The notes: generated from the letters alone by a model not told the origin. 64,000 nucleotides of DNA from an uncultured Nitrososphaerales archaeon (GCA_963706445.1 OY970160.1:736001-800000), one strand, 5' to 3'; shown: positions 11,790-52,635, counted from the stretch's first letter. Numbers and translations: made by a program.

Positions 11790-11830
11790 GTTGGGACGCC
11801 AACTTAGACTGGCAAGGCCCGGCCAGGAGC
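11790..11830 (+). repeat. att-like dispersed repeat copy A (conserved arm + tRNA-Asp-like 3' end)
   Basis: GTTGGGACGCCAACTTAGACTGGCAAGGCCCGGCCAGGAGC. Confidence 0.7.
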
Positions 11831-11887
11831 ATGCTGAGGGTAATTCAACAAGGAGGGCTCATAACAGGAACGACCAGTGACTTCGGC

Positions 11888-13876
11888 CTACCAGACACCG
11901 ATTCTCGGCTTGTTTCCGATCTCGCTTCTCGGTGCTGGCGGGAAAGCGGAGTCGAAACCTGGATGGTTGATAGCTGGGAATACCCCCCTGAGCTTACCAA
12001 GGGAGTGGGGGTCGGTGGTGGTAAGCCGCCAGATCTCCTGCTCTGCCACTTTCTCCCGCCAGATCTGGGCGTAGGAGATGAAGAATCGCTGCTCCGGCGT
12101 CAGGCCTTCACTTTTCCTCTGGCCCGCATGACCCTCCACCAGCCGCGGCCGTAGTGCCTCGTAGGCCAGGCTCACGCCTCCGAAGTCGGCGATGTTCTCT
12201 CCGAGGGTCAGCTTGCCGTTCGCGTGCAGCCCGGGAAGGACCTCCCTTTCGCTGTACGCCCTGACCACGCGTCGGGCCCTCCTGTCGAACTCCTTCTTGT
12301 CCATCTTCGTCCACGAGTTCCTCAGGTTGCCTTGTGCATCGTACTTCCTCCCCTGGTCGTCATAGCCGTGGGTAATTTCATGCCCTATCACGACGCCGAT
12401 GGCTCCGTAGTTCACAGCATCGTCTGCCGTGTGGTCGAAGAAAGGTGGTTGGAGTATCCCGGCGGGGAAGACTATCTCGTTCATGGTCTCGTCAAAATAG
12501 GCGTTCACCGTCGATGGGCTCATCTGCCATTCGTCTCTGTCGACGGGTGTCCCTACCCGGCTCGTCTGCCGGCGGAACTCGAAGGCTGCAGCTCGGCGGA
12601 CGTTTCCGGCGTAGTCTCTAGGGTCGATGTGTATGGACGAATAGTCGCGGAACCTCGGCGGGTGGCCTATCTTCACCCTGAAGTTGCCGAACTTCTCAAG
12701 GGCCTGTTTTCGTGTCTGCTCCGACATCCACGGCAAGGTTTCGAGCTTCTTGGTGAAGACCCTCCTCAGGTCGTCGGCAAGGACGTTAGCCCTGGCACGG
12801 GCCTCCTCGGGGAAATGGTCCTTGACGAAGAGCTTCCCCAAGGCCTCCCCGATCATCGCGTCGATGACTCGCAGGCTGCGCTTCCATCTCACCTCAGGTT
12901 TCTTCTGGCCCGTCAGCTTCCTGCGGAAGAAATCGAAGTGCTCCTCTTCGACGGCGGAGTGAAGGAAGGGAGAAGTTTCCCGGAGCACGTTCCAGCAGAG
13001 GTAGGCCCTCCAGTCGTCGATGCTCCCCTCGGAGACTAGCTTGTCTGCGGCGGCGAAGAACTCCGGCTGTCCGACGACGACATAGGGGACGGCAGGCACG
13101 CGCACGGAGTGGAAATAACTTGCAAGCCTGAGGGCGGGGTACTCCCACTCTAGCTTGGAGACCTCAACCTTGTTGTAGTTCTTTTCTTTCTCGCGTAGCA
13201 ATGTCCTGTTTCTGCTGGCCCTGGCCAAGGCCGTCTCGATGCGGAGGATGCCGGCGGCCCACCGCGTTGCCTGCGTCTTAGGGAGGCCCTTCAGGATGAG
13301 CATACGTACCATGTGGTCCCGGAACTGCCTTCGAATTTTGGCGAAAGACTTGGAAAGGTAGTATTCCCTGTCGGGAAGCGAAAGCCCTCCCTGTTGAAAG
13401 TAGAACGTGTAAGTGGAGCTGTTCTTGTCGTCAGCCTTCGAATAAGAATGGAAGATGGGTTCGATCCTTTCGCTGTGAAGGGGAGGGAGTATACGTGCGA
13501 GCTCGTCCTTCGAGGTGAGCCCTTCGGTCAGACGCCAGAGGTCCTCAATGGGTTCGAATTTGGTAGCCTCTATCTTCCTGGTATTGAGGGCGGAGAGGTA
13601 AAACCCTCCGACGATGGCGCCCGTCGGGTCGCTGGAAGGCGCTCCCAGGTCCCGGGCACACCTTTCTGCGATCTTCCTCAGGTGGACCATGTTCCACTCG
13701 TCTAGCTCGTTGAACGACCCGTACCAGGACTTGTCTGGAGGGAGGGAGTGGGTCTTCAGCCACCCTCCGACGGCATAGCGGTAGAAGTCGTTCCGTGGAT
13801 CGACGGTGGGATCCATGTAGCTCGTTGAGAACTTTGGTACTTGGATGGCCCATTTGCGTCTCGCACTCCTTGCCAA
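11888..13876 (-). CDS. pepO: M13 family metalloendopeptidase (neprilysin/PepO-like)
   Basis: VNAYF, FPAGILQPPFF, HEITHGYD (HExxH) and GENIAD motifs. Confidence 0.93.
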   Translation of the reverse strand: MARSARRKWAIQVPKFSTSYMDPTVDPRNDFYRYAVGGWLKTHSLPPDKSWYGSFNELDEWNMVHLRKIAERCARDLGAPSSDPTGAIVGGFYLSALNTRKIEATKFEPIEDLWRLTEGLTSKDELARILPPLHSERIEPIFHSYSKADDKNSSTYTFYFQQGGLSLPDREYYLSKSFAKIRRQFRDHMVRMLILKGLPKTQATRWAAGILRIETALARASRNRTLLREKEKNYNKVEVSKLEWEYPALRLASYFHSVRVPAVPYVVVGQPEFFAAADKLVSEGSIDDWRAYLCWNVLRETSPFLHSAVEEEHFDFFRRKLTGQKKPEVRWKRSLRVIDAMIGEALGKLFVKDHFPEEARARANVLADDLRRVFTKKLETLPWMSEQTRKQALEKFGNFRVKIGHPPRFRDYSSIHIDPRDYAGNVRRAAAFEFRRQTSRVGTPVDRDEWQMSPSTVNAYFDETMNEIVFPAGILQPPFFDHTADDAVNYGAIGVVIGHEITHGYDDQGRKYDAQGNLRNSWTKMDKKEFDRRARRVVRAYSEREVLPGLHANGKLTLGENIADFGGVSLAYEALRPRLVEGHAGQRKSEGLTPEQRFFISYAQIWREKVAEQEIWRLTTTDPHSLGKLRGVFPAINHPGFDSAFPPAPRSEIGNKPRIGVW

Positions 13877-13995
13877 GGTCGAACGTCATCATGACGAGAA
13901 ACATTGATGCTTAAAGCATTCATGTGGAGTTTCTATATCCACCCACCCCGCGTTATGAAACTGAAGCCGAGAGGACTTCCAAAGGGTGTTGCTAA

Positions 13996-14041
13996 GTTGG
14001 GGCGCGCCTACCTGAACTGTAAAGGCCCGGCTAGGGCGCCA
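13996..14041 (+). repeat. att-like dispersed repeat copy B
   Basis: GTTGGGGCGCGCCTACCTGAACTGTAAAGGCCCGGCTAGGGCGCCA. Confidence 0.8.
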
Positions 14042-14129
14042 TCAATGGTCTAGGAGCCCTTCAAAGTATGGGACATTCAACCTGATGTGTCATAACACGT
14101 ATACGCCCAGGTGACATCGCAATCGGAAC

Positions 14130-15770
14130 ATGGCCCTGGTTTCTCCCCGAAAGGCCGTCATAGCGGTGTTTCTTGGGCTGCTTATGCTCCTCAGTACTGA
14201 CGCGTTTGCTGTTTCAGGCGGGACGGCGCCAAGTTCTGCAGCCTCCAGCATTCAGCAGTTGCCCTACTACTCCGCCACGTACCCCACTCAGCGAACTGAG
14301 TTAGCCAGCTACATGGAGGGCCTCTACAATCCAACATACGATCTTACTCAGGGAACAGTGCTCTGTGGCATCCAGGCGAATGGATTTTCAATCATCGATG
14401 AGAACTTCCTCGACGGGCCGGCCCTCCAGGAATATGACCCCAGCATGGGGAATTCGATCAATTCATCAGTGTTCCATTACCTATCCCAGGTCGGCTATCA
14501 GAACAACGACAGGCGCGAGGTTCTCTTCGGGAATCAGATCCCTCTCCCGCCCCTTACCGGCATTCAGGTACAGATAGCTGGAACCATGCCTACTTGCCCG
14601 AACGGAGGCAAGAACTACACAGGATTTTTCATCACTACGGAGTTGCCTCAACTGTCAACTCCCGCCAAGTCTTACACGAATTCGATGAATATTCTGGCTG
14701 TCTCAGGACTCGAGGACTATCTCTCAGGGAACGTCTCAGGAGCGCTAGAGCTCTTCAACACAGCTCTAGGCTGGTGGACCTGGAATTCGACCTATCATGG
14801 GTTCCTCTCCCCGGCACAGATGCCATGCACTAAGACGACGTGCTCGAGCGGGAACAACTTCGACACGCGCGACTTAGCGTACTTCCTCTTCTTCGCGAGG
14901 GCTACGAGGTTCTACGTCCCTCCGACAACTCTTGGCCAGATTGAATCCACACTTTGGAGTCAGCAGCTCCCACAATACGGCGGAGGGATAGCCACCTCAT
15001 ATAGCTACAACGGATCACCGCTGCCGAAGGGAGGCCATACGAGCGGCGAAATCAACGGGCTCGCCCTGCTTGCTTACGATCCCAGGATTCAGACAACGTG
15101 GTGGCCCGGAGTCATCCAGACCCTGCCGACAACTGCCTCGGTTTCCTGCTCCCCTTCATCTCTTCTGGTGAATACTCCTACGACCTGCGAGGCATTGGTC
15201 AGCAACGGCGACACTTCAATCTCACTTCTACCGACAGGTCAGGTGACCTTCGGGGCCAGCGGATCTGGCAGTTTCTCAAGTTCAGGCCTCTGCAATCTGG
15301 CTCCGGTCAACAGCATCACCGAAGGCTGCTCGGTCATCTTCACTCCCGGTCCGGGCGGGGAAGGCGACCAGCTGATTTCAGCCGACTACCTAGGGGACGC
15401 CTACCATTCAGGCAGCGCCGGAAACGGGATCCTCAGCGTTTCCCAGCGTGGCGCATCCCTGAGCATGAAGTGTTCACCAAGCATTGTCGGGCCCACCTCG
15501 AAGGTGAAATGCACCGTCACGGTCAAGGATACGACAGCGACTGGAACCTTAATCGACCCCAGGGGGAGCGTTTCCTTCTCGGCTAGCAGGAATGTCAAGT
15601 TCAGTTCCCAGAGTTGCGTCCTAGCACCATCAGGAACTGGGCAAGCTTCCTGCAGCGTGACGTTCGTCCCGGGAAGCAAGGCAGTTGGGACGGTGACAGT
15701 TTCCGGTTCCTATGGAGGGGACAAGGATCACACCCCCGCTGTCGGTGGAACATCTGTGAGGGTCAGGTAG
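14130..15770 (+). CDS. Secreted protein: unknown N-terminal domain plus two C-terminal Ig-like repeats
   Basis: Signal peptide; two repeats of the type SVSCSPSS...TCxxxV...PTGxVxF...CSVxF...A/GxYxGD. Confidence 0.65.
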   Translation: MALVSPRKAVIAVFLGLLMLLSTDAFAVSGGTAPSSAASSIQQLPYYSATYPTQRTELASYMEGLYNPTYDLTQGTVLCGIQANGFSIIDENFLDGPALQEYDPSMGNSINSSVFHYLSQVGYQNNDRREVLFGNQIPLPPLTGIQVQIAGTMPTCPNGGKNYTGFFITTELPQLSTPAKSYTNSMNILAVSGLEDYLSGNVSGALELFNTALGWWTWNSTYHGFLSPAQMPCTKTTCSSGNNFDTRDLAYFLFFARATRFYVPPTTLGQIESTLWSQQLPQYGGGIATSYSYNGSPLPKGGHTSGEINGLALLAYDPRIQTTWWPGVIQTLPTTASVSCSPSSLLVNTPTTCEALVSNGDTSISLLPTGQVTFGASGSGSFSSSGLCNLAPVNSITEGCSVIFTPGPGGEGDQLISADYLGDAYHSGSAGNGILSVSQRGASLSMKCSPSIVGPTSKVKCTVTVKDTTATGTLIDPRGSVSFSASRNVKFSSQSCVLAPSGTGQASCSVTFVPGSKAVGTVTVSGSYGGDKDHTPAVGGTSVRVR

Positions 15771-15944
15771 TTCCTGTATCACCTGATTCGGACGACATCT
15801 GGCCACGGGTCAGCCCCCTTACAATTGGAACCTTCCAGCCAATTTCGCTCATGGATGGACTCCTTCCTTTCATTATTCATAAGTAAAATCTCAAATCGGC
15901 AGTCAACCCGGTTCTGGCGACTCCCCCTCGCAATCGTCTTTCTG

Positions 15945-16151
15945 TTAACCCTCGTCGGATGGCGGCCTTTCGACCCTTCCGATGCCATAGGCAAGATATC
16001 CTACCCCGACGAGTATTAGTAGCCCCGCTAATGCAATCACGAGACCTGCCGCCTGATTATTTACGGATACACCGAGACCGAGAAAGAGGACGAGACCCCC
16101 GCCGCTTGCCATCCATCGGAGCTTTCTCATCAGGGACTTCTTAGCGGACAT
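15945..16151 (-). CDS. Small two-TM membrane protein
   Basis: 68 aa with two hydrophobic segments. Confidence 0.5.
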   Translation of the reverse strand: MSAKKSLMRKLRWMASGGGLVLFLGLGVSVNNQAAGLVIALAGLLILVGVGYLAYGIGRVERPPSDEG

Positions 16152-16277
16152 TCCGTTCGGCTAGGTTCGAGGCGTTCTGAATTAAGGTTGACCACTTGTT
16201 CTCACCACGGAGTCTGATTCCACTCTATCTGCGTGAGTGTGGCCCTGCAGGAGCCGGTCGAAGCTGTCAGGAAATCG

Positions 16278-16787
16278 TTACATCGTCAGTTCCAGGTCTT
16301 GCAGCTTCCCGCCCGCAAGAGGCCTTTCTCCGCGCGCTTTCCTTCCTAACACTTCTAGCTGCCAGATTCCGACCGTGAAAGGTATCATCGCAGTTACTCC
16401 CCAGACCAGGGCAAAGACCTGTGCGCTGGCCAGATTGACCGGGGGAAGCTCCAGGTATTGGACCATGTCGAAGGCGAAGTCCGCCGACACCAGGGCGATG
16501 ACGAAGGAATAGCAGACGACCCTCGTCTCTTTGTGGGTGACCAGGATCGTGAGTGATATTACGGCTAGAGCCAGAAGAACGTCCCACTCGGCGACAAAGC
16601 TCGTGTCGAGCTGAGCCAAGGGATTGAGTTCAGCCCCTATCGCCACCCTTACCGCTGCGACGGTATCGACGTAGGTCAGGGTCCTCAGCATCAGAACGAT
16701 CCCCAGTGCCGTGAAGAAAGCGCCGTCGAACCGTCTCTCGGCCCCTTCGTCCAGCCGCGTCATCAGGGACTTGGACGCCTCGCGCAT
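16278..16787 (-). CDS. Membrane protein (possibly DUF5658-like)
   Basis: Four hydrophobic helices; D-T...ELNPL motif. Confidence 0.5.
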   Translation of the reverse strand: MREASKSLMTRLDEGAERRFDGAFFTALGIVLMLRTLTYVDTVAAVRVAIGAELNPLAQLDTSFVAEWDVLLALAVISLTILVTHKETRVVCYSFVIALVSADFAFDMVQYLELPPVNLASAQVFALVWGVTAMIPFTVGIWQLEVLGRKARGERPLAGGKLQDLELTM

Positions 16788-16943
16788 CCCATCTCAGAGG
16801 CTCGGACCCCTCTTATACGTATTCAAAAACCGAATTACCATGACGGCTCCCGCTAGCCCAGACGAATTCTAACTGATCTGTAATGAAGCCGAACTCATTC
16901 CAAGTGAGTTCGTCTTAAATATCAACTCGAGTCCATTTCGTTA

Positions 16944-17450
16944 ATGAATCTCCGGGGTCTGCTCTTGCTTCTGCTCCTTCTTGCCCTTCTGCTGCCCCTG
17001 ACCTCGATATTCCACTCTGCCGCAGTCTCTGAGGCCGGATACGCCGGCATCGGCAATTCGGTCGTGGTGGTTGCAAAGGAGAACTACGTCTTCGCCAGGG
17101 TTCAGATCGTCGTGCAACCACTTGAGAACAACACCAACGTGGTGGTTCACGGCGGCCAGATCCAACCCACCAGGTTCACGTTCCCCAATGGCACCTCCGT
17201 CACCGTAGACCAACCGACGACTTTCACCATCATCCTCTCAAACGAGGCCATCATCGGAGTTTCCGCCTCTTCGGCGGGAGGACCAGGCTACAATGTCAGC
17301 CCGGACAATCCGCTCAGCGTCCAGGTGCTTCCTGGCCAGAATGCGACCTCGAGCTCGGTGGTCGGCGCCATACCCGGCATCGACATCTTCCAGTATACCC
17401 TGAGCGGCGACTACGAGCTATCGGTGCAAGCGCTGGGGATGTCGCTCTGA
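16944..17450 (+). CDS. Secreted or membrane-anchored beta-rich hypothetical protein
   Basis: Poly-Leu signal; TTAAATA box ~29 nt upstream; first gene of a 3-gene operon. Confidence 0.65.
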   Translation: MNLRGLLLLLLLLALLLPLTSIFHSAAVSEAGYAGIGNSVVVVAKENYVFARVQIVVQPLENNTNVVVHGGQIQPTRFTFPNGTSVTVDQPTTFTIILSNEAIIGVSASSAGGPGYNVSPDNPLSVQVLPGQNATSSSVVGAIPGIDIFQYTLSGDYELSVQALGMSL

Positions 17451-17461
17451 GCGAAGCGGAC

Positions 17462-18148
17462 GTGGTCGCGAAGGTAGGCGACCTCATGAGAACCCTCGAC
17501 GACGTGAAGAGATACCGAGAGCTGGCCTCGGCGATGGTCGACTTCGTTGCCATCATGGTCGTCTCGTTGATTGCAGTCGTTGTCCTCACGTCGCTCCAGT
17601 TCGTCGCCGACGTCGTGTATGGGTCTCCCAATACACTCAATGGGCAGGCCCTGCTGCTGTTCGGTCCGCCTTTCCCCGCCAGCCCTTGGATCTTCCTGGG
17701 CGAGCTCGTCATCCTCTTCTCCGGGCTCATATTGGGGGTCTACTGGGTCGACAGGAGGGTGCGTATCACCAAGGTCGGAGGATGGAAGGGCGCACTTGAC
17801 GAAGGAGCCCCGGGGGCAATCAAGCTCCTCTCAAACATCGACTGGGACTCGATGCTGGGGTCGGTCAGCCTCGCCAGGGTTTCTTACCTATTCTATGCAC
17901 TGATCAAGGTCGTGGGGTACTTCTTATTGACGACAGTTGTCCTGTCATTCGTCTTCCTTTTCTCCTTGGGATTCTTGTTTCCGGCGGCCCTGAGCTACAT
18001 GCCATTCCTGTCGCTTGTCATCGTACTGCTCTTCACGAGAAAGAGCATCGCGGATGGTTTCCGACGCCTTCGATCGCTGGATTCACTCTTCTGGGACCTC
18101 AGGTGGTTTGCGTCTGAATTCAAGAGAGCGGAATTCAACCAAACCTGA
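17462..18148 (+). CDS. Four-TM membrane protein
   Basis: Hydrophobic helices; operonic spacing. Confidence 0.7.
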   Translation: MVAKVGDLMRTLDDVKRYRELASAMVDFVAIMVVSLIAVVVLTSLQFVADVVYGSPNTLNGQALLLFGPPFPASPWIFLGELVILFSGLILGVYWVDRRVRITKVGGWKGALDEGAPGAIKLLSNIDWDSMLGSVSLARVSYLFYALIKVVGYFLLTTVVLSFVFLFSLGFLFPAALSYMPFLSLVIVLLFTRKSIADGFRRLRSLDSLFWDLRWFASEFKRAEFNQT

Positions 18149-18413
18149 CCTCTACGTGCTCGCTCGCATAATCAAGATTCTGAGCGAAAAGGGGCAGACG
18201 AACAGGACGGCGCTAGCGACGGCGGCCGGAGTCTCCTACGACCGCTTTGTGCTGTACCTGGATTGGATGACCCAAAAGGGCTTTGTGAACCTCGCTGAGG
18301 ACGGAGATGTCCACCTGACGGCTGCCGGTGCTCAGGCCTACGACCAGCTCGTCCAATGGATCATCCAACACGTCGGTCAACTCCCTCTCAAACGTGAAAC
18401 GGGAGATCAGTAG
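18108..18413 (+). CDS. Archaeal winged helix-turn-helix regulator
   Basis: PDLYVLARII...RTALATAAGVSYDRFVLYLDWM...VHLTAAG; overlaps the upstream gene; start approximate. Confidence 0.75.
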   Translation: MRLNSRERNSTKPDLYVLARIIKILSEKGQTNRTALATAAGVSYDRFVLYLDWMTQKGFVNLAEDGDVHLTAAGAQAYDQLVQWIIQHVGQLPLKRETGDQ

Positions 18414-18506
18414 TCGCGTTCCTGGCTTCAGAAAGCAGGTTACGAGCTGTTCGGGTTGAATGCCACACCAACTGCTTTATGGCTGAAAATCAGGACGCGG
18501 TATGGA

Positions 18507-19154
18507 GTGAAGAGAACAAGGTCCGACTCGGAAGTAGTTGCACGGTTCCTAGTTAACGGTCTTCTTCTTGAGTCGGACCACCACCTCCCAAGCGTAGTGG
18601 GGGTCGTCGCTGGCAACAGGATCAAGGGTTCGTGGTGGGGTCACCCCAAGGGCCGCGAGATTTGGCGTGAATTGAATGAACTCGGAGAGCGCGACGATGT
18701 TCTGACCACACGGCTGATTTCGGGCAAGGTCACCTTCGTCCATCGAAGGCTGTGGCCTGACTTCTTTGCAATTGCGGTCTCAAGGGAGAGTTGGCAGACG
18801 AAAGGTCTCTCCGCCGACGCGAGAAATCTGTTCTACGTGGTGGAAAGTGAAGGAAGGGTCAGGACAGATGAAAAGTTGCCATCGGTGCGGTTCAAGGGCA
18901 AGATAGGTGACGCTGCACGCGAACTAGAAAGAAGTCTCCTGGTGCATAGTGACCAGGTACACACGGAGAGGGGCAGCCATGCAAAGGTACTTGTTTCGTG
19001 GCCGACCTGGGCTGGGTCGATCGGCCTGAGGCAAGATCGCACTAATCCAGCCGAGGCGAAGGTGAGATTCGAAATGATCTTGGACTCGATGAACAGAGAA
19101 AACGGCGGGAGCGGACGCCTGCCCTGGGTCGACGTAAGCCAAGGCAGAGATTAG
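18507..19154 (+). CDS. Winged-helix protein, AlkZ/YcaQ-related (uncharacterised)
   Basis: LPSVV...GSWWGHPKG...GKVTFVH motifs; start probably GTG 18507. Confidence 0.55.
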   Translation: MKRTRSDSEVVARFLVNGLLLESDHHLPSVVGVVAGNRIKGSWWGHPKGREIWRELNELGERDDVLTTRLISGKVTFVHRRLWPDFFAIAVSRESWQTKGLSADARNLFYVVESEGRVRTDEKLPSVRFKGKIGDAARELERSLLVHSDQVHTERGSHAKVLVSWPTWAGSIGLRQDRTNPAEAKVRFEMILDSMNRENGGSGRLPWVDVSQGRD

Positions 19155-19485
19155 ACGAACTTCAGTCGGACGCCTGGTTCGTCGCTGCGAACTCATCGAG
19201 GATATCCAGCGAGCGCTGGCGGAGGGCATGCGTCAGCGTCGTATACCCAAGGCCTTCTGGTAAAGATCCACAAGTCTGCATGCTGATCCTCCGTCTCCAT
19301 CTGCGTCCATATCCCATGGTCTTCTTTGCCTTCTGCTTCACTTCCTTTGAACTCACCAGGGTAATGCGATTCGACACTCTACTAAACGTTCCCGTCATTC
19401 GGAGGATATGCCTTTGTCTGCCGTTCGTCCCTTCGTAGTGGGTATGTCCTTATAAAATGACCAGGAAAAACCAAGGGTAGCGGCC

Positions 19486-19917
19486 TTGAGCACCCCGGCT
19501 CTTCCCAGCCTCGGCAGTCTGACCCTGACGGACGTGCTTGTGACCATCATCGGCTTGGTCATTCTGTGGGTAGTCATCTCGATACCGGCGTGGTTGGCAG
19601 GCAAGGCGATAACCGGGGGAAAATCCACCTTAGGCGACGCCATGGTGGCCACCCTGGTTGGCCCGATAGTCTACTTTGTGATCCTGATAGCGGTGGATTT
19701 CTTTCTGGGAGCGCTGATCGGCCCCGGGGCGTTCATTTTCGCCTTGATCTTGGCCTTCATTGCCTGGATTTGGGTCTACAAATCAAGCTTCGGAACGAGC
19801 TGGCTAGGCGGACTGGGGATAGCCATACTCTCAATAATCATCTTCGCCGTGATGAGCGTGATTCTTGGAGCCCTCTTCGGCGTAGTGGTTCCAGCATCAT
19901 TTTTCCCTCACCTTTAG
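19486..19917 (+). CDS. Four-TM membrane protein
   Basis: Hydrophobic ORF with a TTATAAAA box upstream. Confidence 0.7.
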   Translation: MSTPALPSLGSLTLTDVLVTIIGLVILWVVISIPAWLAGKAITGGKSTLGDAMVATLVGPIVYFVILIAVDFFLGALIGPGAFIFALILAFIAWIWVYKSSFGTSWLGGLGIAILSIIIFAVMSVILGALFGVVVPASFFPHL

Positions 19918-43838: not shown

Positions 43839-43841
43839 GCC

Positions 43842-44973: not shown

Positions 44974-45000
44974 ATATAGCTTGAGAGGGTCGAATAGCTG

Positions 45001-45312
45001 ATGGCGTTCGACATCTTCTGGATGAACGTCGCTGCAGGTTTCGCGTTCGTCAACATCGCCTTCGTGGCTTTGTTGATAGGCCTCTACTTCAGGAGCTGGC
45101 AGAAGGTGCGTTCCTCGCTGAGCCTCGCACTGATTCTCTTCGCTGTATTCTTCCTGGTTCAGAATGGGGTAATCGTAGTCTTCTGGTACGTCCTCTACGG
45201 TCTTGGCCCTCCCTTCCAGTCGGTCGTGGTTTCAGCGGCCCCCTACCTTGCTGCAATCAACGCCCTTGAGACGCTTGCGCTCGCGAACCTAGTTAGGATC
45301 ACTTGGAGCTAG
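45001..45312 (+). CDS. Three-TM membrane protein, probable partner of the ArsR-like HTH
   Basis: Hydrophobic; Y..W.KVRS...LILFA.FFLVQN pattern; adjacent to the HTH gene. Confidence 0.75.
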   Translation: MAFDIFWMNVAAGFAFVNIAFVALLIGLYFRSWQKVRSSLSLALILFAVFFLVQNGVIVVFWYVLYGLGPPFQSVVVSAAPYLAAINALETLALANLVRITWS

Positions 45313-45365
45313 TCCAAGCCAGGCTGGCCATGCCCCAGCCCGGTTCGGCAGATCCCGTCAACCCG

Positions 45366-45387
45366 ATTTGGGTCGGATTTGGGCATA
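45366..45387 (+). promoter_or_regulatory. Tandem 11-bp operator O2
   Basis: ATTTGGGTCGG-ATTTGGGCATA; ends 33 nt before ATG 45420. Confidence 0.75.
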
Positions 45388-45419
45388 CCGCTAATTAGTC
45401 TGAACCAAGAATAATACCG

Positions 45420-45599
45420 ATGACCGGATATTCAGCCGACCTGAAGCAAGTATGTGGCTGTGCCTGGGCAGCTACCGGTGCCACTTCGGACGAAGTGACA
45501 AACAAAGTGGCGTCGCATGCGATGCAGGCTCACGGGATGGATGAGGTCCCAGCCGAAGTAGCCCAGAAGCTTCAGGCAGCCATGAGACCGACGATGTAA
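45420..45599 (+). CDS. DUF1059-like small metal-binding protein (59 aa, not in the ORF track)
   Basis: MTGYSADLKQVCGCAWAATGATSDEVTNKVASHAMQAHGMDEVPAEVAQKLQAAMRPTM; CxC plus HxxxxH. Confidence 0.8.
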   Translation: MTGYSADLKQVCGCAWAATGATSDEVTNKVASHAMQAHGMDEVPAEVAQKLQAAMRPTM

Positions 45600-45609
45600 G
45601 AACTCACTG

Positions 45610-45637
45610 GAGGCGCAAGCCTCCTCTTTCTTTTTCT
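45610..45637 (+). terminator. Hairpin plus T-rich terminator
   Basis: GAGGC-GCAA-GCCTC followed by CTCTTTCTTTTTCT directly after the DUF1059 gene. Confidence 0.55.
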
Positions 45638-45783
45638 GATCAGACGATCTTGCAATCCATCAAAAGGAAGCTTTGTCGAAGGAGAACAAGCCGTAGGTGA
45701 TTTTAGGCGAATTGGAGGGCACCCTTGAAGACAACAGCTGCGCCGAAACAAGAAGGTCGAGGCAGAGGGCGATTCATTTGCCG

Positions 45784-45805
45784 ATTTGGGCATAATTCTG
45801 GCATA
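45784..45805 (+). promoter_or_regulatory. Tandem 11-bp operator O3
   Basis: ATTTGGGCATA-ATTCTGGCATA; ends 35 nt before ATG 45840. Confidence 0.75.
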
Positions 45806-45839
45806 GCCTTTTCTACTTTTTGCACTCGATGCTCTTCCG

Positions 45840-46163
45840 ATGAATGACATAACAGATGAAAGTCGGCGCAAGTTTCTGAAGGTTGTGGCGCTTGGAGGGG
45901 TAGCTGTCGCTGCAACACCGCTCTTGATGAATGCCAAGATCCTGGGGTTGGGGTCAGCTTCCGTAAGCCCCGCTTTGGGGACAGGAACGGCATACGCACC
46001 TGTTTCAACTAAAACGGGTGGCGCCGGAGGGGACGATTCCACTTTGGTAGTCGTAGTGAAGAACGGCCAGGTCACAGGCTACAGGGGTGCGCAGAAGGTC
46101 GCCATGAATGACCTTGCGCTCGGATCCCAACTTCACACCTCCTTCGAGTCATACCTGGAGTGA
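45840..46163 (+). CDS. Small twin-arginine (Tat) signal protein
   Basis: Consensus SRRKFLK plus h-region; small C-terminal beta domain. Confidence 0.85.
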   Translation: MNDITDESRRKFLKVVALGGVAVAATPLLMNAKILGLGSASVSPALGTGTAYAPVSTKTGGAGGDDSTLVVVVKNGQVTGYRGAQKVAMNDLALGSQLHTSFESYLE

Positions 46164-46169
46164 TTGGAA

Positions 46170-47627
46170 ATGACATCCCACAGAGAGGCGCCGTCGATCT
46201 CTAAGGACCCGGTTGCGGACAATACAGATCTGTATGCGTTCGTCAGTCCCGACAAGCCGAACACAGTGACAATCCTGGCCAACTACATACCGCTTGAAGA
46301 GCCAGCTGGAGGCCCGAATTTCAATTCGTTCGGGGACGACGTACTCTACGAGATCAAGATCGACAATGACGCCGACGCCAAACCAGACATCACCTATCAG
46401 TTCACATTCAGGACTACGGTCGCAAACAAGAACACCTTCCTTTACAACACCGGTCCAATAGCAACGCTCGATTCGCCGAACTGGAACGTCCGTCAGTTCT
46501 ACAAGGTGACCGAAGTCAAGGGAGATGGCATCGCAAAGGTGCTTGGTGACAACCTTCCCTGCCCGCCGGTCAACATAGGTCCCCGGTCAACGCCCAGCTA
46601 TGCGAGCTTGGCCGACGCCGCGATCAAGGCCCTTTCCGACGGATCTTCGGTGTTCGCCGGCGCACGCGCGGACGGGTTCTACGTAGACCTTGGGTCGATC
46701 TTTGACCTGGGGACACTAAGGCCGCTCGAGTCCTACCACCTGATTCCAGTCCCGCCGAACGCTGCGGGGGTGAACGGACTTAAGGGATACAACTGCCACA
46801 GTATCGCTCTTCAGGTGCCCATCTCCAAACTGACGTCGGACGGTTCGGTACCAACCGACCCTAGCAAGCAAGAGGCTGTCCTTGGTTTCTGGGCTACAGC
46901 TAGTCGGCGAGCGGTCAGGGTTCCAGACGGAGCCTCTTCGAGCCAGGCATTCGAAGAAGCGGGGCCCTTCGTTCAGGTGTCCAGACTCGGAAACCCTCTG
47001 ATCAACGAGGTCGTAATTCCGGTCGGTACGAAGGACCAGTGGAACACTGTACAACCCTCGATGGACTCGGCCTTCGCCCCCTACTATCTAGTCCCCGAGC
47101 TCTCCAAGCTTCTGCCGGTACTGTACCCGGGCGTCTTCCCCAATCTGGCCGGCCTCTCAGGCTCAGCCGCCCCCAGAAACGACCTCGCAGCCATTCTTCT
47201 GACGGGTATCCCGAGCGGGATAATCACCGGGTTCCAGAACTTCACTGGTGCGACTCAGGCAGACATGCTCAGGCTGAACGTCGCCATCCCTCCAAACACA
47301 ACCGCGGGGGCCAACCCGCCTTTCAACAGCTCGAGCAGGCAGGGGATCCTTGGCGGAGACCTGGCGGGCTATCCCAACGGCCGACGGGTGTTCGACAACG
47401 TCGTGGCCATAGAGCTCCGAGCCATAGCGGGTCTCACATACCCCCTTGTCATGCCCAGCTACACCCCTGACGCGGCCGCAGGAATTTTGGCCGACACCGA
47501 CACCCCAGATCCAGGTGTCACAAAGTTCTCTGACGCCCAGAACGATGTCACCAACGCGCCATACCTGGGAAGCTTTCCATACCTCGCGACTCCCTACCAG
47601 GGTTACGAGCATGAGCACGACCCCTAG
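46170..47627 (+). CDS. DUF4331 family protein without a signal peptide
   Basis: SHREAP...DNTDLYAF, QVSRLGNPLINEV, DMLRLN and GYPNGRR motifs; SD GGAGTGA before ATG 46170. Confidence 0.88.
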   Translation: MTSHREAPSISKDPVADNTDLYAFVSPDKPNTVTILANYIPLEEPAGGPNFNSFGDDVLYEIKIDNDADAKPDITYQFTFRTTVANKNTFLYNTGPIATLDSPNWNVRQFYKVTEVKGDGIAKVLGDNLPCPPVNIGPRSTPSYASLADAAIKALSDGSSVFAGARADGFYVDLGSIFDLGTLRPLESYHLIPVPPNAAGVNGLKGYNCHSIALQVPISKLTSDGSVPTDPSKQEAVLGFWATASRRAVRVPDGASSSQAFEEAGPFVQVSRLGNPLINEVVIPVGTKDQWNTVQPSMDSAFAPYYLVPELSKLLPVLYPGVFPNLAGLSGSAAPRNDLAAILLTGIPSGIITGFQNFTGATQADMLRLNVAIPPNTTAGANPPFNSSSRQGILGGDLAGYPNGRRVFDNVVAIELRAIAGLTYPLVMPSYTPDAAAGILADTDTPDPGVTKFSDAQNDVTNAPYLGSFPYLATPYQGYEHEHDP

Positions 47628-47657
47628 GCCGGTTCCGGACTTCGTAGGTTTCCATCC

Positions 47658-48695
47658 ATGAAGCTGGGACTGCCAATGGGGGACAGGATGGCGGTCCTAG
47701 GAATCTACGCAGCCATCGGGGCAGCCACGGCAGCCAGCCTGATGATAGCAGGGATCGTCGGGCGCTCGTTCGCCTTGATTCTGGGATTGAGCATGACGAC
47801 CTACATCCTCGGAGTCAGGCACGGGCTCGATGCGGACCATATTGCAGCCATAGACAACGTCACCAGGAGGCTGATGAACGGGGGGAAGCGCCCCATGACG
47901 GTGGGGACCTGGTTCTCGCTCGGGCACTCTACCATAGTCTTCGCTCTCACAGCTGGGATCACGATCGGGGCGCGCCAGGTCCTAGCCGCCGAGCCCGAGA
48001 TAGCCGGAATGGGATCTATCCTGGGTACGGGCATATCGGCCGCCTTTCTCTGGCTCATCGGGACAGTCAACCTCCTTTCTGCCATCCAAATCTACCGAAC
48101 GCTGAGGGCTGTACACAGCGGGAAGAATCAGGGCGACTCCGCTGATATTGCCATCCAGGGCGGGGGCTTCTTCAGCAGGAGGATGGGCCGGCTCTTCGAC
48201 CTGGTTCGGAAGCCGTGGCAGATATACCCCATAGGCATCCTGTTTGGGCTCGGGTTCGACACCGCGACCGAGGTCGCGCTAGTCTCGCTCAGTGTGCTCG
48301 CCGCGGTGGGGGGCTCGATCCCGGTCTGGACCGTGCTCATATTGCCAGCTACCTTCAGCTGCGGGATGGTGCTGGTCGATACTACCGACGGTGTGATGAT
48401 GACTTTTGCCTACGAATGGGCGTTTCTCCAACCTATGCGCAAGATATTCTACAATCTGACCTTGACCGTAGGGTCAATCGTCGTAGCCTTCCTGATAGGG
48501 GGGGTCGAGGTGCTCCAGGTCCTCTCACAGGGGCTGGGCCTTAGGGGCTTTTTCTGGACCTGGATGGGGGGAATCGACTTTGAAACCCTGGGGCTGTTCG
48601 TAGTTGCGGCGTTCGGGGCCACATGGGTCGTATCGTTGTCCTTGTACCGGTTCAGGCGCTACGGAAGGACCCTGGCGTTGCCCGCCGGCCCGTGA
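47658..48695 (+). CDS. NiCoT nickel/cobalt permease, copy 2
   Basis: RHGLDADHIAAID, FSLGHST and LGFDTATE signatures. Confidence 0.93.
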   Translation: MKLGLPMGDRMAVLGIYAAIGAATAASLMIAGIVGRSFALILGLSMTTYILGVRHGLDADHIAAIDNVTRRLMNGGKRPMTVGTWFSLGHSTIVFALTAGITIGARQVLAAEPEIAGMGSILGTGISAAFLWLIGTVNLLSAIQIYRTLRAVHSGKNQGDSADIAIQGGGFFSRRMGRLFDLVRKPWQIYPIGILFGLGFDTATEVALVSLSVLAAVGGSIPVWTVLILPATFSCGMVLVDTTDGVMMTFAYEWAFLQPMRKIFYNLTLTVGSIVVAFLIGGVEVLQVLSQGLGLRGFFWTWMGGIDFETLGLFVVAAFGATWVVSLSLYRFRRYGRTLALPAGP

Positions 48696-48717
48696 AGATC
48701 CGTTTTCGCCGATGGCC

Positions 48718-49140
48718 CTAGCTGTTCGCGTGAAATATTCCTGAGCTTACTTCCTCGGTGACCTTGAGCCCTCCAGGTGGCACATTGAAGGGGCAGATGA
48801 TCCCCCGGCTGTATTTGACCGCTCCCTCGACCTCGATGACTGGGAACTCATCCTCGGTTGCCCGGGCGGCATGGGACCGGACTTCCTGTTCCGTCTGACA
48901 CAGCCTATCCAAGTTCTTGAGCAGGTCCTCCCCTTTTTCCGTGTAAATCCGACGTATCTTGGCCTCTCCCTCAAGCTGTTTTGACACCTCAGAATCGTAC
49001 AGAAAGACCCTGTCTCCCTCTTCGATCAGATCCCAATCGTCGCTCTTCTCCCCTACGTAAAGAACCCTATGATGAACGATGTTGTGCACCGCTTCGCGGC
49101 CCATGGGAATTATTATCCCTGTCACTCCGTTTTTCCCCAT
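48718..49140 (-). CDS. PUA/ASCH-like (DUF365-like) protein
   Basis: GDRVFLYDS...LEGEAKI...KY pattern. Confidence 0.6.
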   Translation of the reverse strand: MGKNGVTGIIIPMGREAVHNIVHHRVLYVGEKSDDWDLIEEGDRVFLYDSEVSKQLEGEAKIRRIYTEKGEDLLKNLDRLCQTEQEVRSHAARATEDEFPVIEVEGAVKYSRGIICPFNVPPGGLKVTEEVSSGIFHANS

Positions 49141-49198
49141 TTGTTGCTCGCCATCAATGGACGACTTTTGGCACTTTCGGAAGGGGTCCGTGAGAATT

Positions 49199-49492
49199 CT
49201 AGGAGAATTTCTTTACGCGCTGCACGATTTCGGCCGAAATCTGATCTGAGGTCTTTCCTTCGGTGCTTATCCCAAGCTGCTTCGCTGTATTGCGAAGCGC
49301 GTCAGGGGAACCAACTTCCGCCTCCGGGTGACCTGCCACAGGCGCTGCGGTTTCCTTCCCACCCATCTCGAATTCGTTCTTCGCCCTCCCTAAACTCCTT
49401 GCCAGTTGAGGGATCTTTGTAGGGCCCCACATCAAGACAACCACAGCGATTGCCCCTATGATCAACAGCTGAACCGGGTCTGCGAATACCAT
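49199..49492 (-). CDS. tatA: Twin-arginine translocase TatA/E subunit
   Basis: TM + WGPTKIPQLARSLGRAKNEF; archaeal-type tail LGISTEGKT. Confidence 0.9.
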   Translation of the reverse strand: MVFADPVQLLIIGAIAVVVLMWGPTKIPQLARSLGRAKNEFEMGGKETAAPVAGHPEAEVGSPDALRNTAKQLGISTEGKTSDQISAEIVQRVKKFS

Positions 49493-49525
49493 TGAAAGAC
49501 GAAGTGCGTACTGCAGATATTAGCT

Positions 49526-49547
49526 TATGCCAGATTTTGGCCCAAAT
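49526..49547 (-). promoter_or_regulatory. Tandem 11-bp operator O4
   Basis: Minus strand ATTTGGGCCAA-AATCTGGCATA; ends 34 nt before tatA ATG 49492. Confidence 0.72.
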
Positions 49548-49570
49548 CCCGGACGGACTTCCCCGGCTAG

Positions 49571-49638
49571 GTAGGGCGCCTTCAGCTCAACGGACAACGC
49601 CCGGCCAGGGCGCCTCCTTCCAATGTAGGCGCCCCAAC
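49571..49638 (+). repeat. att-like repeat copy H followed by an inverted left arm
   Basis: GTAGGGCGCCTTCAGCTCAACGGACAACGCCCGGCCAGGGCGCC; then GTAGGCGCCCCAAC (49625-49638), the reverse complement of the arm. Confidence 0.72.
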
Positions 49639-49849
49639 GTACTCATAGACTAGGAACATCAGATGAACTAGTGACTTACTTCCATGACCACGGGAAGAAG
49701 CTGGAAGCGACCATTCTCAGGACGGAGAGCGAAGACTTCCCCTGTCGGCTGAAGCACAGAGTCTTGACCATTCTCTGCATTGGCGAAGAAGTCCCTGAAT
49801 GCCGGCCAGTGTTTGTGAATCGCAGAAGAGGCTGGTTCCCTCAATAGTT

Positions 49850-51376
49850 CTATCGCATATCGGGGGGCAGCTCTCCTGCCTCCAAGTCATCCTCTGTTAT
49901 TCCTCGGCACTTGGCATATGCCGCCCTATAGCCACGGAGTAGGTCACGGCTTTCTCCGAGGACGTATTCCAAAGTATCCAATCGATTCGAGTCAATCAGC
50001 GAGCTGTTCTTGTATCGTCCAGTGTTCTTATCGTAGCCCATGGCTTCGTTTGCTGCATCCCAATCCCGTTTTTGCTTGAGGTACACATCTAGGGCTTTCA
50101 GATAGGCTGCTTCCGCTTCGGCGCACGGATCCGGTGCGGCCGGATTCGGAGGCGGGGGTTCGAGGGGGGGAGCAGTCTTTGGAGCCGCCGCCGGAGGGGG
50201 GATAGGCACCGCGGGAGTAGGGGGTGCAGCTGGGGTCGGAATGCCTGGCGGCTCTTCTGGCGGTGCAGTCGCCGCTATCTCAGCCTCCAGCTTCTCCATG
50301 AACGTGTCTTCTTCCAACGGCGGTTGACCAGGAAGATACTCCGGCTCCAACCCTAGGTCATCTCCTGGGGGCTTTCCTGACAGCGGAGGTGGACCAGGAG
50401 GCTTGGGCGGGGGGTTAGCCGCTCCCTCCTTCTCGTCGTCCTCATCCCCTCCAGAGAAATACCAGTACAGGAATATTGCAGCGCCGATACCCACAAACGC
50501 AACCAAGAGCTCCCAGGCCAAGGCACCATTAGTGGTCGTGCCGCTGCTTGCTGTTGAACTACTGGAGCTCGAAGATGGGCTCGTCGTCGTATTACTGCTA
50601 GGAGAAGTGGTCGATACTACAGATGTCGTCGTGTTCGTAGCTTGACTGACCGTGATATTGGCGATGGGAGAAGTGACTGTCATAGGCAGACTGGCGTTGT
50701 CGGTCACCTGGAGCTCGAAATGCCAGATCCCTGCAGTGGAAAGATTGCCTGTTGGAACTGTCGGTGGGGGTGTAGCTGTGCAAGCGAAGGGGTTCCCCAT
50801 GACCACAAAGGCGTTGAGTTCGGGAGCCCACACAAGCCACTGGCATGCGTAGGGTGGTGTCCCTCCGCTGAACGGCGTCGTAGTGGTGAGGGTGACTGAC
50901 TGGCCGGCGTTGACCGTAGGCTGAGAGACGGAGATCACGGGAGCCACGAGGGCGGGGTTGACGATCGCCGTGGCGTTGGCCAAGGCGGTACCCAGAGAGC
51001 CCGCGTTCAACAGCGCGCAGAATGGAACAGTAGCTGGGGTTTGAGATGGCGTCAGCGGGGGGGTTGTGAAATTGTCTGACGGTCCAGACTGGAGTGGTGG
51101 TGTGGGGCACCCCGGCGTCCCGAAGCCGGAGGACCAGGTTATCGTATAGGGGAATCCTGATGGCACTCCGCTTACTTGGGCTCTGAAATGAGCGGACCAC
51201 CCGTAGTCGACCCTTTGATTGGGGACTGTGAGTGTGACACCACCCTGGGCGTGCGCTACCGGGGTGGCGACTGTGAAGACAAGGACCAGCAACGAACTGC
51301 CGAGAAGCAAACTAGAAACAAATGGCCCAAATCGGACGTCCGTTGGCCGCACGTTCACAATGCGACAGGACTGCAT
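49850..51376 (-). CDS. Single-pass membrane protein: two Ig/PKD-like domains, S/T stalk, TM, Pro-rich tail and terminal helical hairpin
   Basis: Signal ending AHA; GGTPPY..QW..ELQVTD motif; TM WELLVAFVG...; Pro-rich region. Confidence 0.7.
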   Translation of the reverse strand: MQSCRIVNVRPTDVRFGPFVSSLLLGSSLLVLVFTVATPVAHAQGGVTLTVPNQRVDYGWSAHFRAQVSGVPSGFPYTITWSSGFGTPGCPTPPLQSGPSDNFTTPPLTPSQTPATVPFCALLNAGSLGTALANATAIVNPALVAPVISVSQPTVNAGQSVTLTTTTPFSGGTPPYACQWLVWAPELNAFVVMGNPFACTATPPPTVPTGNLSTAGIWHFELQVTDNASLPMTVTSPIANITVSQATNTTTSVVSTTSPSSNTTTSPSSSSSSSTASSGTTTNGALAWELLVAFVGIGAAIFLYWYFSGGDEDDEKEGAANPPPKPPGPPPLSGKPPGDDLGLEPEYLPGQPPLEEDTFMEKLEAEIAATAPPEEPPGIPTPAAPPTPAVPIPPPAAAPKTAPPLEPPPPNPAAPDPCAEAEAAYLKALDVYLKQKRDWDAANEAMGYDKNTGRYKNSSLIDSNRLDTLEYVLGESRDLLRGYRAAYAKCRGITEDDLEAGELPPDMR

Positions 51377-51446
51377 TCGGTCGATATAGGCATCACCTAC
51401 AAGAACGACCGTGATGAGGGTTATGACGGGATCTTTGTGCGCTCGG

Positions 51447-51586
51447 TCGGGGGCGCCTACCTGAACTGACTATTCCCGGCCAGGGTGCACAACATGGCGG
51501 TCTCCTCGGCTCCGACAATGGCTTGTTTCAGCTTAAGAACAACGGACTAACCATCACGTTCAAGGAATCTGCTACCGAAACTGCAA
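51447..51586 (+). repeat. att-like repeat copy I plus ~100-bp extension shared with copy G
   Basis: GGGGGCGCCTACCTGAACTGACTATTCCCGGCCAGGGTGCACAAC...AACTGCAA. Confidence 0.85.
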
Positions 51587-51608
51587 GACGAGGCATTCGC
51601 ACTTCATC

Positions 51609-52523
51609 CTATATTCTACTTGCAATTTCATTGAAAACTGCAGCCAAATCGGTACCCGCCGTTGTAACCGCCGCGATTATGACTACTGCAATAAGTCCCG
51701 CTACGAGGCCATACTCGATTTGTGTTACTAGTGGCGAAACAGTCGCAGACGCACTGTCGAGGAGGAAGTTATCGAAGCCGTTGCCACTCGCTGCATTCCC
51801 GATGAGTATGTTGCTGGAAGTGCTGATGAGGAAGAAGCCAACCCCGTTGTTGCTGTTCGCTCTGTTCCCGATGAGCGTGTTGCTGGACGAATAACCGAGG
51901 ACAAAGCCATCAAAGCTGTTGCTGTTCGCTGTGTTCCCGATGAGCGTGTTGCTGGAAGTGCTCACGAAGAGGAAGCCAGCCACGTTGTTGTCGCTCGCTG
52001 TGTTCCCGATTAGTGTGTTGCTGGAGGAGAGCACGAGGAAGAAGCCAACCTGGCCGTTACCATTCGCTGTGTTCCTGATGAGTACGCTGCTGGGAGAGCT
52101 GACGATGATGAAGCCGCCCCCATTACCATTCGCTGTATTCCCGATGAGTGTGTTGGAAGAGCTGCCGAGGCCAAAGCCGTCATAGAATCCCGTAACATTG
52201 CAGTTCATGACCGTGACTCTTGCTATCCCGGTAATCTCACTGATCCCTATGCTGTCAGCAGCGCCGGAGCCGCCTATGGTCTGCCCAGCGCAGTTGAGGG
52301 TTATACCATTAGCGCCTATGATGAGGCCGTTCCCTGGGCAGGGACCAATGCTGGCGTTCAGTGTAGTGCTGGTCGTAATTGTGGAGCCACACATTGGCGC
52401 CGGCGCAGCGTGGACAGGGACAGGCAAGAAAGCAAGGGTTGAACCAAGAATCATCGCGAGAAGCAAAATCGCATAGCGGGCCTTCCGAGTGCCCTTACCC
52501 ATTAGGGTTGCCGTGGCCTGCAC
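51609..52523 (-). CDS. Secreted right-handed beta-helix (NosD/CASH-type repeats) ending in an Flp-pilin-like segment
   Basis: ~23-aa repeats SSSNTLIGNTANxNxxxGF; C-terminus IEYGLVAGLIAVVIIAAVTTAGTDLAAVFNEIA. Confidence 0.82.
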   Translation of the reverse strand: MQATATLMGKGTRKARYAILLLAMILGSTLAFLPVPVHAAPAPMCGSTITTSTTLNASIGPCPGNGLIIGANGITLNCAGQTIGGSGAADSIGISEITGIARVTVMNCNVTGFYDGFGLGSSSNTLIGNTANGNGGGFIIVSSPSSVLIRNTANGNGQVGFFLVLSSSNTLIGNTASDNNVAGFLFVSTSSNTLIGNTANSNSFDGFVLGYSSSNTLIGNRANSNNGVGFFLISTSSNILIGNAASGNGFDNFLLDSASATVSPLVTQIEYGLVAGLIAVVIIAAVTTAGTDLAAVFNEIASRI

Positions 52524-52593
52524 TTGCTATATAAGCGGTTGTGGAGTGTTTGTTGCGATAATTTATTTTTTCGCGGTAATTCGTGAAAAGAGA

Positions 52594-52635
52594 GGTCTTT
52601 GGCCGGGATTTGTCATCCTAGGTAGGCGCCCCCTC
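52594..52635 (-). repeat. att-like repeat copy J (opposite orientation)
   Basis: Minus strand GGGGGCGCCTACCTAGGATGACAAATCCCGGCCAAAG; retains CAAATCCCGG T-loop/T-stem. Confidence 0.8.

Follow-up and report, generated by a model that had tools for sequence, protein, structure and literature searches.

Junctions derived from tRNA-Asp bound a row of integrase-less modules in an uncultured Nitrososphaerales archaeon

Why does one short sequence recur at the boundaries between mostly unrelated groups of genes, with no integrase beside it? We asked this of a stretch of 64,000 nucleotides from an uncultured Nitrososphaerales archaeon (GCA_963706445.1, OY970160.1:736001-800000), in the following called the window, in which an element of about 44 bp occurs ten times. 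The genome is one contig of 1,817,757 bp with 58% G+C, of which the window takes up positions 736001-800000, and all coordinates are window positions unless they are marked as genome positions. A preliminary description of this DNA, drawn from the sequence alone, had taken each copy for a conserved arm joined to a displaced tRNA 3' end, and the region for a platform that captures genes in the manner of integrons or tycheposons. We find that the repeat is a real attachment-site (att) junction derived from tRNA-Asp and that the window holds an integrase-less accretion island. In the explanation that we favour, each copy is the attachment-site junction of integrative elements that are specific for tRNA-Asp in the Nitrososphaerales of soil and peat, and the window holds a row of modules that have no integrase; we give this explanation a probability of roughly 0.7.

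The repeated element is confined to one island

The ten copies lie within 11788-52637 (40.8 kb), nine on the plus strand and one on the minus strand. Their number, orientations and spacings (about 2.2, 10, 9.9, 5.7, 3.4, 1.4, 5.2, 1.9 and 1.1 kb) are those that had been given before. A profile hidden Markov model (HMM) made from the ten copies was run over the whole genome with nhmmer, and at E<1e-6 it matched these ten copies only. The lesser matches were a decayed copy at genome 803081, about 3 kb beyond the end of the window, two weak candidates at genome 810486 and 723796, and the tRNA-Asp gene itself, which is matched by the right half of the element alone (genome 1258876-1258900, minus strand). 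The 16-mer of the right half has 4 matches, compared with 0.06 expected in shuffles. Ten copies within 40.8 kb of a 1.8 Mb genome, nine of them on the same strand, cannot be due to chance or to a genome-wide pattern. Since the copies are clustered and share a strand, the even spread of a repetitive extragenic palindromic (REP) sequence or a miniature inverted-repeat transposable element (MITE), which the preliminary description had named as the outcome that would speak against it, does not apply.

Nine of the ten copies share their orientation irrespective of the direction of the genes around them. The earlier statement that the copies are always intergenic holds in the sense that none is found inside an open reading frame (ORF) with family support; the copies at 24040, 33899 and 52590 run into the ends of ORF calls that lack support (92-97 aa) or into the TTG start of a NicO gene, which is probably over-extended.

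The right half of the site is the end of the tRNA-Asp gene

Next, we asked where the two halves of the site come from. The host has a single gene for tRNA-Asp(GTC), at genome 1258882-1258992 on the minus strand. It carries two introns, one in the anticodon loop and one of 16 nt in the T-loop between positions 59 and 60; many introns are found in the tRNA genes of this host, and the two-intron tRNA-Asp gene is kept in 42 of the 54 congeners searched. The right 16-19 bp of the site are the 3' exon of this gene together with 3 nt of the T-loop intron: the 16-bp core TCCCGGCCAGGGCGCC is shared with the 3' exon, and it is usually preceded directly by AAG, as at the end of the intron. The family core AAG-TCCCGGCCAGGGCGCC differs from the host tRNA-Asp by 1 mismatch and from either tRNA-Glu by 6, which settles in favour of tRNA-Asp the choice between the two that the preliminary description had left to be compared. 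As the core spans the entire 3' exon plus the final three intron bases, it was copied from the tRNA gene and not from the mature tRNA. The identity of 16-19 nt with tRNA-Asp holds in every genome.

The left 22-25 bp form the arm, GTTGGGGCGCCTAC-N-TG-N-AAG. It meets the core exactly at the T-loop, on the junction between intron and 3' exon, so that the proposed composite of a conserved arm and a tRNA end joined at the T-loop is borne out. The arm matches no tRNA of the host genome. It might have been a longer, ancestral form of the T-loop intron, which can be ruled out because throughout the genus this intron is conserved at a length of 16 nt; two arm-like matches elsewhere, at genome 470185 and 308029, are due to chance. 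The core of this att site thus begins right where intron meets exon in an intron-bearing tRNA, which is relevant to the old idea of an interaction between tRNA introns and integrating elements.

On the other side of the core, distinct right flanks recur behind CCAGG(G) in different genomes, and for this reason we place the junction there. The families of right flanks are GGCGCC..., GGACTTTCGTGC, GGGCRTACMAC and the right arm that is described below. Motifs of the form GGGGCGCC are found in the arm, and an inverted copy of the arm follows some cores (49622-49641 in the window, and metagenome contig L113).

Three observations on these sequences stand apart. In four congener loci (L039, L040, L048 and L059) unrelated sequence stands in place of the first 9 nt of the tRNA-Asp gene, a hint at a third intron or at a split gene. 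At locus L025 (G004:C1:206823-206894) two sites are joined tail to tail at a palindromic GGCGCC, so that the junction is a perfect palindrome, as one would expect from synapsis of two sites in the wrong alignment or from inversion of a cassette. The hexamer GGCGCC is not avoided in the host genome, its ratio of observed to expected occurrences being 0.96, and avoidance was rejected.

The site in related genomes

When the genus was searched with a sequence model of the site, 21 of 55 genomes proved to carry it, each with at most 31 copies, which are nearly always clustered and often form several clusters. Other families of the order are matched only at the end of tRNA-Asp. A scan of 185,579 species genomes with an exact pattern returned 26 loci, all of this lineage, and the carriers were metagenome-assembled genomes (MAGs) of Nitrososphaerales or Thaumarchaeota from peat, soil and groundwater. 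The same kind of scan found the site on 50 metagenome contigs, whose source environments are not recorded, and among viral contigs neither the site pattern nor the integrase described below was found. Beyond single genes, there is no nucleotide synteny of the whole region with congeners.

The relatives tie the site to a tyrosine integrase that is specific for tRNA-Asp and to arrays anchored at tRNA-Asp, the latter being seen in two congeners. In G006, tRNA-Asp is followed by a gene for 576 aa and then by a site, all in one orientation. In G043 the order is tRNA-Asp, an integrase pseudogene with one in-frame TGA, a site, a gene for a cyclase-TPR protein and another site, again in one orientation; the minimal element in this genome consists of the integrase only and measures 2.1 kb. 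The G043 integrase forms a clade of 75-92% identity with two genes of G067, of which one lies behind tRNA-Asp and the other, a paralogue of 92% identity, behind a full site. When the three loci are aligned, the homology between tRNA loci and site locus starts exactly at TCCCGG and runs through a right arm of about 60 nt into the start codon of the integrase. This start codon lies 63 nt past the core or tRNA-Asp in five tRNA-Asp contexts (G067, G043 and the loci L162, L163 and L164) and once after a full site. Besides the genes of G067 and G043, three metagenomic homologues (96, 83 and 82% identity) stand behind tRNA-Asp with the same right arm. The metagenome contigs with close homologues of the integrase (2059 and 2931 bp) show no terminal overlap and thus no free circle.

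An integrase of the G067 type is encoded at L105:5479-6708 on the minus strand. The integrase has about 400 aa, with a Phage_integrase domain and a C-terminal zinc ribbon, and its sister clades (28-41% identity) stand beside tRNA-Thr, -Ala, -Leu, -Gly and -Glu. A second type of integrase linked to tRNA-Asp, found in G012, bounds an element of 10 kb with a repeat of the core only, and an N-terminal fragment of an integrase of this type lies between two full sites on a metagenome contig. From the layout of integrase and tRNA-Asp in the relatives it follows that the repeat of arm and core is the attR, or distal junction, of such elements; where the right arm comes behind a repeat, one element adjoins another.

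Polarity of the genes and breakpoints at the core

We wanted to know whether the sites stand in a fixed relation to the genes around them. For 117 distinct copies, the site and the gene 5' of it point the same way in 69 of 93 cases (binomial p=3e-6, a value that overstates the independence of the copies, which are related), and the stop codon of a co-oriented 5' gene precedes the site by a median of 68 bp. There is no such bias for the gene on the 3' side (41 versus 43). Across the genus, the site most often neighbours genes for cyclase-TPR proteins of about 650 aa; of about 12 full-length genes of this family, 8 have the site 26-153 bp past the stop codon.

Furthermore, the homology between species breaks at the sites, as the preliminary description had anticipated. 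Stretches that are 86-96% identical between species begin or break off where the core has its 3' end; ordinary orthologues in the genus have about 70% nucleotide identity. The clearest case is a unit of 428 bp, consisting of a small ORF and a site, which is 96% identical in G010 and a SPRUCE peat MAG and stops exactly at the 3' end of the core; the sequences that follow are unrelated, that of G010 being the right arm. Two further blocks of homology begin at this position. These breakpoints suggest events in the past.

Proposed explanation and points that weigh against it

From the observations above we infer that the array grew by serial integration and that modules may still move where an integrase is supplied in trans; any account of its place away from tRNA-Asp would be conjecture. 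The left arm would be carried by the element, at the end opposite to the integrase gene. In a live element, a tyrosine integrase of about 400 aa would be encoded 63 nt after the core, behind the conserved right arm, and would recombine the unit of arm, core and right arm with the 3' exon of tRNA-Asp or with a resident site, near CCAGG. Repeated insertion would then stack modules, each of which closes in arm and core. In the present host the integrase genes would have been lost, so that a row of 41 kb remains, perhaps 63-90 kb if the decayed copies are counted, in which at least nine modules of 1.1-10 kb carry accessory genes and no integrase.

Several findings weigh against this explanation. 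The first concerns the integrase. No recombinase or transposase was found among the ORFs of the window that were scanned against Pfam, which agrees with the earlier remark that no integrase is in view, and there is no integrase within 200 kb of the array. Tyrosine recombinases number only three in the genome, at 543 kb (beside tRNA-Glu), 1522 kb and 1618 kb (beside tRNA-His), and serine recombinases are absent; there is neither a cognate integrase nor a remnant of one in the genome, the array having been searched by tblastn with 11 integrases. Within the genus, the integrase clade is found in 2 of the 55 genomes, compared with 21 that have sites, and G065, G004 and G006 carry 12-31 near-consensus sites (31 in G065) without this clade.

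The second concerns the tRNA. There is no tRNA gene in the window, and the array lies 470 kb from the only tRNA-Asp gene, which keeps its ancestral context; the intact tRNA and tyrosine integrase that the preliminary description had advised looking for at the edge of the array are present at neither edge. The 3' side of tRNA-Asp is syntenic with G006 and carries no site, and this excludes a simple displacement of the array; a shift away from tRNA-Asp by one inversion was rejected on the same grounds. The same is seen in most congeners that are rich in sites: in G004, G014, G016 and G019 no site is found up to about 18 kb downstream of tRNA-Asp and the arrays are elsewhere, and the contig with tRNA-Asp of G065 has no listed site.

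Third, arm and core are evenly conserved across species whose other intergenic DNA cannot be aligned. Most simply, this could mean that the sites continue to be used for recombination or that they have another selected role, the latter of which would count against our explanation. A block of four genes at genome 725.5-729.3 kb, close to the left end of the window and outside it, is orthologous to a block in G004 that is bounded by sites there and not here. Finally, we placed contigs of four public runs from three studies, at a depth of about 3-5x, on the region 33600-53500. They show no excision, no joint at the sites and no circle junction, which at this depth is not evidence against mobility; the junctions at 39572 and 42935 are bridged unchanged, the latter by a contig of an independent soil run of 2024.

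Since the array is far from tRNA-Asp and has no integrase, since the integrase clade is rare and since no excision junction was seen, we propose only tentatively that the modules are captured and moved in trans, and we consider this doubtful. It is a similarly speculative thought that the system would be an archaeal counterpart of integron capture built on an attachment site of the tRNA type, in which a rare, transient integrase of the G067 type would excise units of one or a few ORFs and a site as circles and insert them wherever a site is resident; selection would keep the sites where the enzyme is lacking, and whole genera would hold ready platforms away from the tRNA. No plasmids or conjugation systems of uncultured soil and peat Nitrososphaerales are known in this data set. 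If the modules can still be moved, one integrase and one site of 44 bp would provide a concrete route of gene flow in these poorly understood archaea.

Alternative explanations

Potentially, after the first integrations the row could have grown without any site-specific recombination, units of gene and site being multiplied by duplication and by unequal homologous recombination between the 44-bp repeats in an old island, with the sites as passive scars. Families of paralogues are indeed found inside the island (cyclase-TPR, NHL, NicO, phosphoesterase and BNR), and the site copies at 44379-44514 and 51451-51586 have about 96 nt more of 3' flank in common, at about 90% identity (a 136-nt repeat, family D10, of 88%). 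The copies in this host are also more decayed, with a mean column identity of 69% across the ten, and the junctions are stable in two independent studies. However, adjacent modules are mostly unrelated in sequence, and the cyclase-TPR paralogues predate the split of the species, their identity being 61-68% between species and 53% within. The unit of ORF and site that is 96% identical in two species needs transfer, not local duplication. We therefore regard duplication as rather unlikely.

A second possibility is that the host keeps the site for a function in cis on the gene upstream, as an element that sets the 3' end or the stability of the transcript or as a binding site for a protein, which mimics the end of tRNA-Asp or derives from it; the clusters would then be accessory genes that are regulated together. 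The strong polarity with the short distance behind co-oriented gene ends, the recurrence behind cyclase-TPR genes and the conservation of both halves in species without the integrase all fit such a function. On the other hand, there is no conserved fold: the consensus structure has -3.1 kcal/mol with a covariation term of +0.69 kcal/mol, only 2 of the 7 predicted pairs keep pairing with both sides changed, and no Rfam family matches in the window at the gathering score. As the consensus fold is so weak, a structured RNA was dropped as a reading of the site. Termination in archaea uses runs of T, and the site has none. A quarter of the sites lie behind a gene of the opposite direction, and a function in cis leaves unexplained why an integrase follows directly upon the site or the tRNA and why homology breaks at the end of the core. 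Altogether we find this explanation quite improbable.

It is very unlikely that the element is a non-autonomous repeat of the MITE or REP type which was spread by transposition and resembles a tRNA by chance. It is short, intergenic and multi-copy, with many copies in some congeners, as such repeats are; but terminal inverted repeats were not found (the search did not extend to target-site duplications), the copies keep to one island and a uniform orientation, the identity of 16-19 nt with tRNA-Asp recurs in every genome, and there is no transposase nearby, the linked enzyme being a tyrosine integrase.

Last, we can give hardly any credence to a true integron with attC sites and an integrase of the IntI type: integrons have reportedly been found in Archaea, and the layout of an ORF followed by a site, the single-gene cassettes and the one-directional array are as one would expect, but the sites are 44 bp long, conserved in sequence and without a hairpin (seven weak pairs in the consensus fold), there is no IntI and no attI, the core of identity is a tRNA exon, and the linked integrase is of the ordinary tRNA-targeting type with a zinc ribbon. 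Of the integron- and tycheposon-like platform in the preliminary description, the layout stands; as there is no attC-like fold and no IntI, the word integron can describe the layout only.

Comparison with known systems

The array of the favoured explanation, a row of tRNA-Asp-derived junctions, works like tycheposon-shaped islands and like arrays of cis-mobilisable elements (CIMEs), and in its layout it resembles an integron. By their definitions it belongs to none of these classes, because attC, IntI and a tRNA at the array are missing and neither a replication module nor movement of modules was observed.

In the tycheposon islands of Prochlorococcus (bioRxiv 10.1101/2020.12.28.424599), recombinases target tRNA genes and newer insertions push older ones inward; the islands hold partial tRNAs, fragmented integrases and orphan cargo, and full elements are much rarer than islands. 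These features are shared. The present system differs in its archaeal host and in that no replication module was seen, none having been systematically searched for. Each partial tRNA is fused here to one conserved arm of 22 nt, the arrays are mostly away from the target tRNA, and the modules, which go down to a single gene, have a fixed polarity from gene to site; their mobility we only infer.

The accretion arrays and CIMEs of streptococcal integrative and conjugative or integrative and mobilisable elements are reportedly att-flanked modules without integrase and excisionase (ICEberg 2.0, PMC6323972; PMC5704250), just as here. CIMEs are reported to arise by tandem site-specific integration, and with the enzyme of a related element they are believed to move. 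The modules of the window are likewise bounded by sites and free of recombinases, and the same site is used by the integrase elements of G067 and G043. CIMEs are described there as few per locus and placed at the primary att site, whereas the genomes studied here carry 10-31 sites each, spread over several clusters, and many of them lack a related integrase.

Integrated elements of Thaumarchaeota have been described by Krupovic et al. 2019 (PMC6563490). That study deals with the same phylum and names tRNA genes as the main target; tandem arrays of tyrosine-recombinase elements are acknowledged, and the median length of the att core is 17 bp, compared with 16-19 bp here. The elements in it are multi-gene and bear an integrase; a text search of it found no integrase-less arrays of modules of one to few genes closed by a conserved composite site, and tRNA-Asp is absent from its main text. 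Among other types of element, the direct repeats equal to the 3' part of a tRNA are those of a tRNA-targeting element of the pNOB8-like, non-partitioning type, whose integrase beside the att junction and intact tRNA at the end of the array are lacking in the window and present in relatives. An origin of the SSV type (partitioning), with att inside the ORF of the integrase, was rejected, since several variants of the site have TAG or TAA in the sole open frame (by eye) and the core lies 63 nt upstream of the start codon of an intact integrase.

Integron arrays and clusters of attC sites lacking integron-integrases (CALINs) have in common with the window that promoterless-looking ORFs, each followed by a site, are repeated in one direction, often with no integrase nearby. 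They differ in having an attC fold, IntI or attI, none of which is found here, where the site is of the double-strand type, conserved in sequence and derived from a tRNA.

The individual copies and the modules between them

Among the full copies are copy 2 (13995-14049, plus strand, nhmmer E=3.1e-11), whose arm has an insertion of 2 nt, and copy 3 (24036-24091, plus, E=1.1e-11). The match to the site stops after CCAGG(G) in four copies. Of these, copy 1 (11788-11835, plus, E=5.6e-9) has arm and core, loses the match after CCAGG and lies behind a co-oriented BNR-like gene at 10302-11633, and in copy 4 (33896-33948, plus, E=9.3e-10) the match is likewise lost after CCAGG. The 3' flank of copy 5 (39572-39623, plus, E=3.9e-11) resembles, by eye, the flank 3' of tRNA-Asp in the congeners G009 and G018. 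There follow copy 6 (42932-42985, plus, E=1.2e-8), copy 7 (44374-44425, plus, E=3.7e-10), copy 8 (49568-49621, plus, found by nhmmer), in which blastn shows an exact match of 16 nt to tRNA-Asp, CCCGGCCAGGGCGCCT, and copy 9 (51445-51498, plus, E=8.7e-12). Copy 10 (52586-52637, minus, E=2.1e-9) is inverted, and its match is lost after CCAA. Two fragments consist of the arm only: one at 38570-38593 (plus) belongs to the repeat family D11 and corresponds to a weak nhmmer match at genome 774570, and an inverted one at 49622-49641 (minus) directly follows the core of copy 8, a similar inverted motif being found behind site 2 of the metagenome contig L113. The flank that copies 7 and 9 have in common is better conserved than the sites themselves, and it was not found in other genomes.

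The modules closed by the sites carry accessory genes for secreted hydrolases, adhesin-like repeat proteins, cyclase-TPR signalling, metal transporters and the synthesis of compatible solutes. The first module holds an M13 peptidase alone (11888-13876, minus strand, Pfam PF05649/PF01431), which has a paralogue of 72% nucleotide identity at genome 1218900-1220791 and whose homology to other species is limited to the gene. The second module (14130-24024, 10 kb) encodes, by Pfam, a Big_3_5 protein, hypothetical proteins, a membrane protein of 143 aa, a SnoaL protein, a cyclase-TPR protein (20606-22675) and an NHL-repeat protein. The gene for the 143-aa membrane protein (19486-19917, plus) belongs to no Pfam family and has 84-88% nucleotide identity in at least 10 congeners, compared with about 70% for other genes; G045 and G008 have it some 1 kb downstream of tRNA-Asp, behind a right arm of the integrase type and with no integrase. 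In the third module (24100-33890, 9.9 kb) Pfam finds NicO, a PALP enzyme, a mannosyl-3-phosphoglycerate synthase with a HAD phosphatase, an NHL propeller, a tautomerase and a phosphoesterase.

Within the next module (33899-39572), a small ORF and a PIN-domain gene at 37132-37799 (plus) are likely a toxin-antitoxin pair of the VapBC type. A direct repeat of about 287 nt with 82-91% identity has one copy in the array (38082-38368) and one past the last site (57038-57323), 19 kb apart, and metagenome contigs carry variant bases in the former. Cyclase-TPR paralogues are found three times in the window, at 20606-22675, 41086-42906 and 57752-59686. The middle one (plus strand) is a TPR protein of this family by Pfam that has no recognisable cyclase domain, and its stop codon lies 26 bp ahead of copy 6. 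Between the inverted copies 9 and 10 (inverted repeat I3) there is a module of a single gene for a NosD/beta-helix protein with a Flp-like end (51609-52523, minus, Pfam), which contains four to six tandem repeats of 69 nt at 51758-52115.

To the left of the first site there are three paralogous genes with BNR repeats (3100-4500, 6057-7544 and 10302-11633) and an inverted repeat of 110 nt with 84% identity (2830-2940 and 5994-6103). Orthologues of array genes of G004 are found at genome 721-729 kb, and the variable island probably begins well to the left of the first site.

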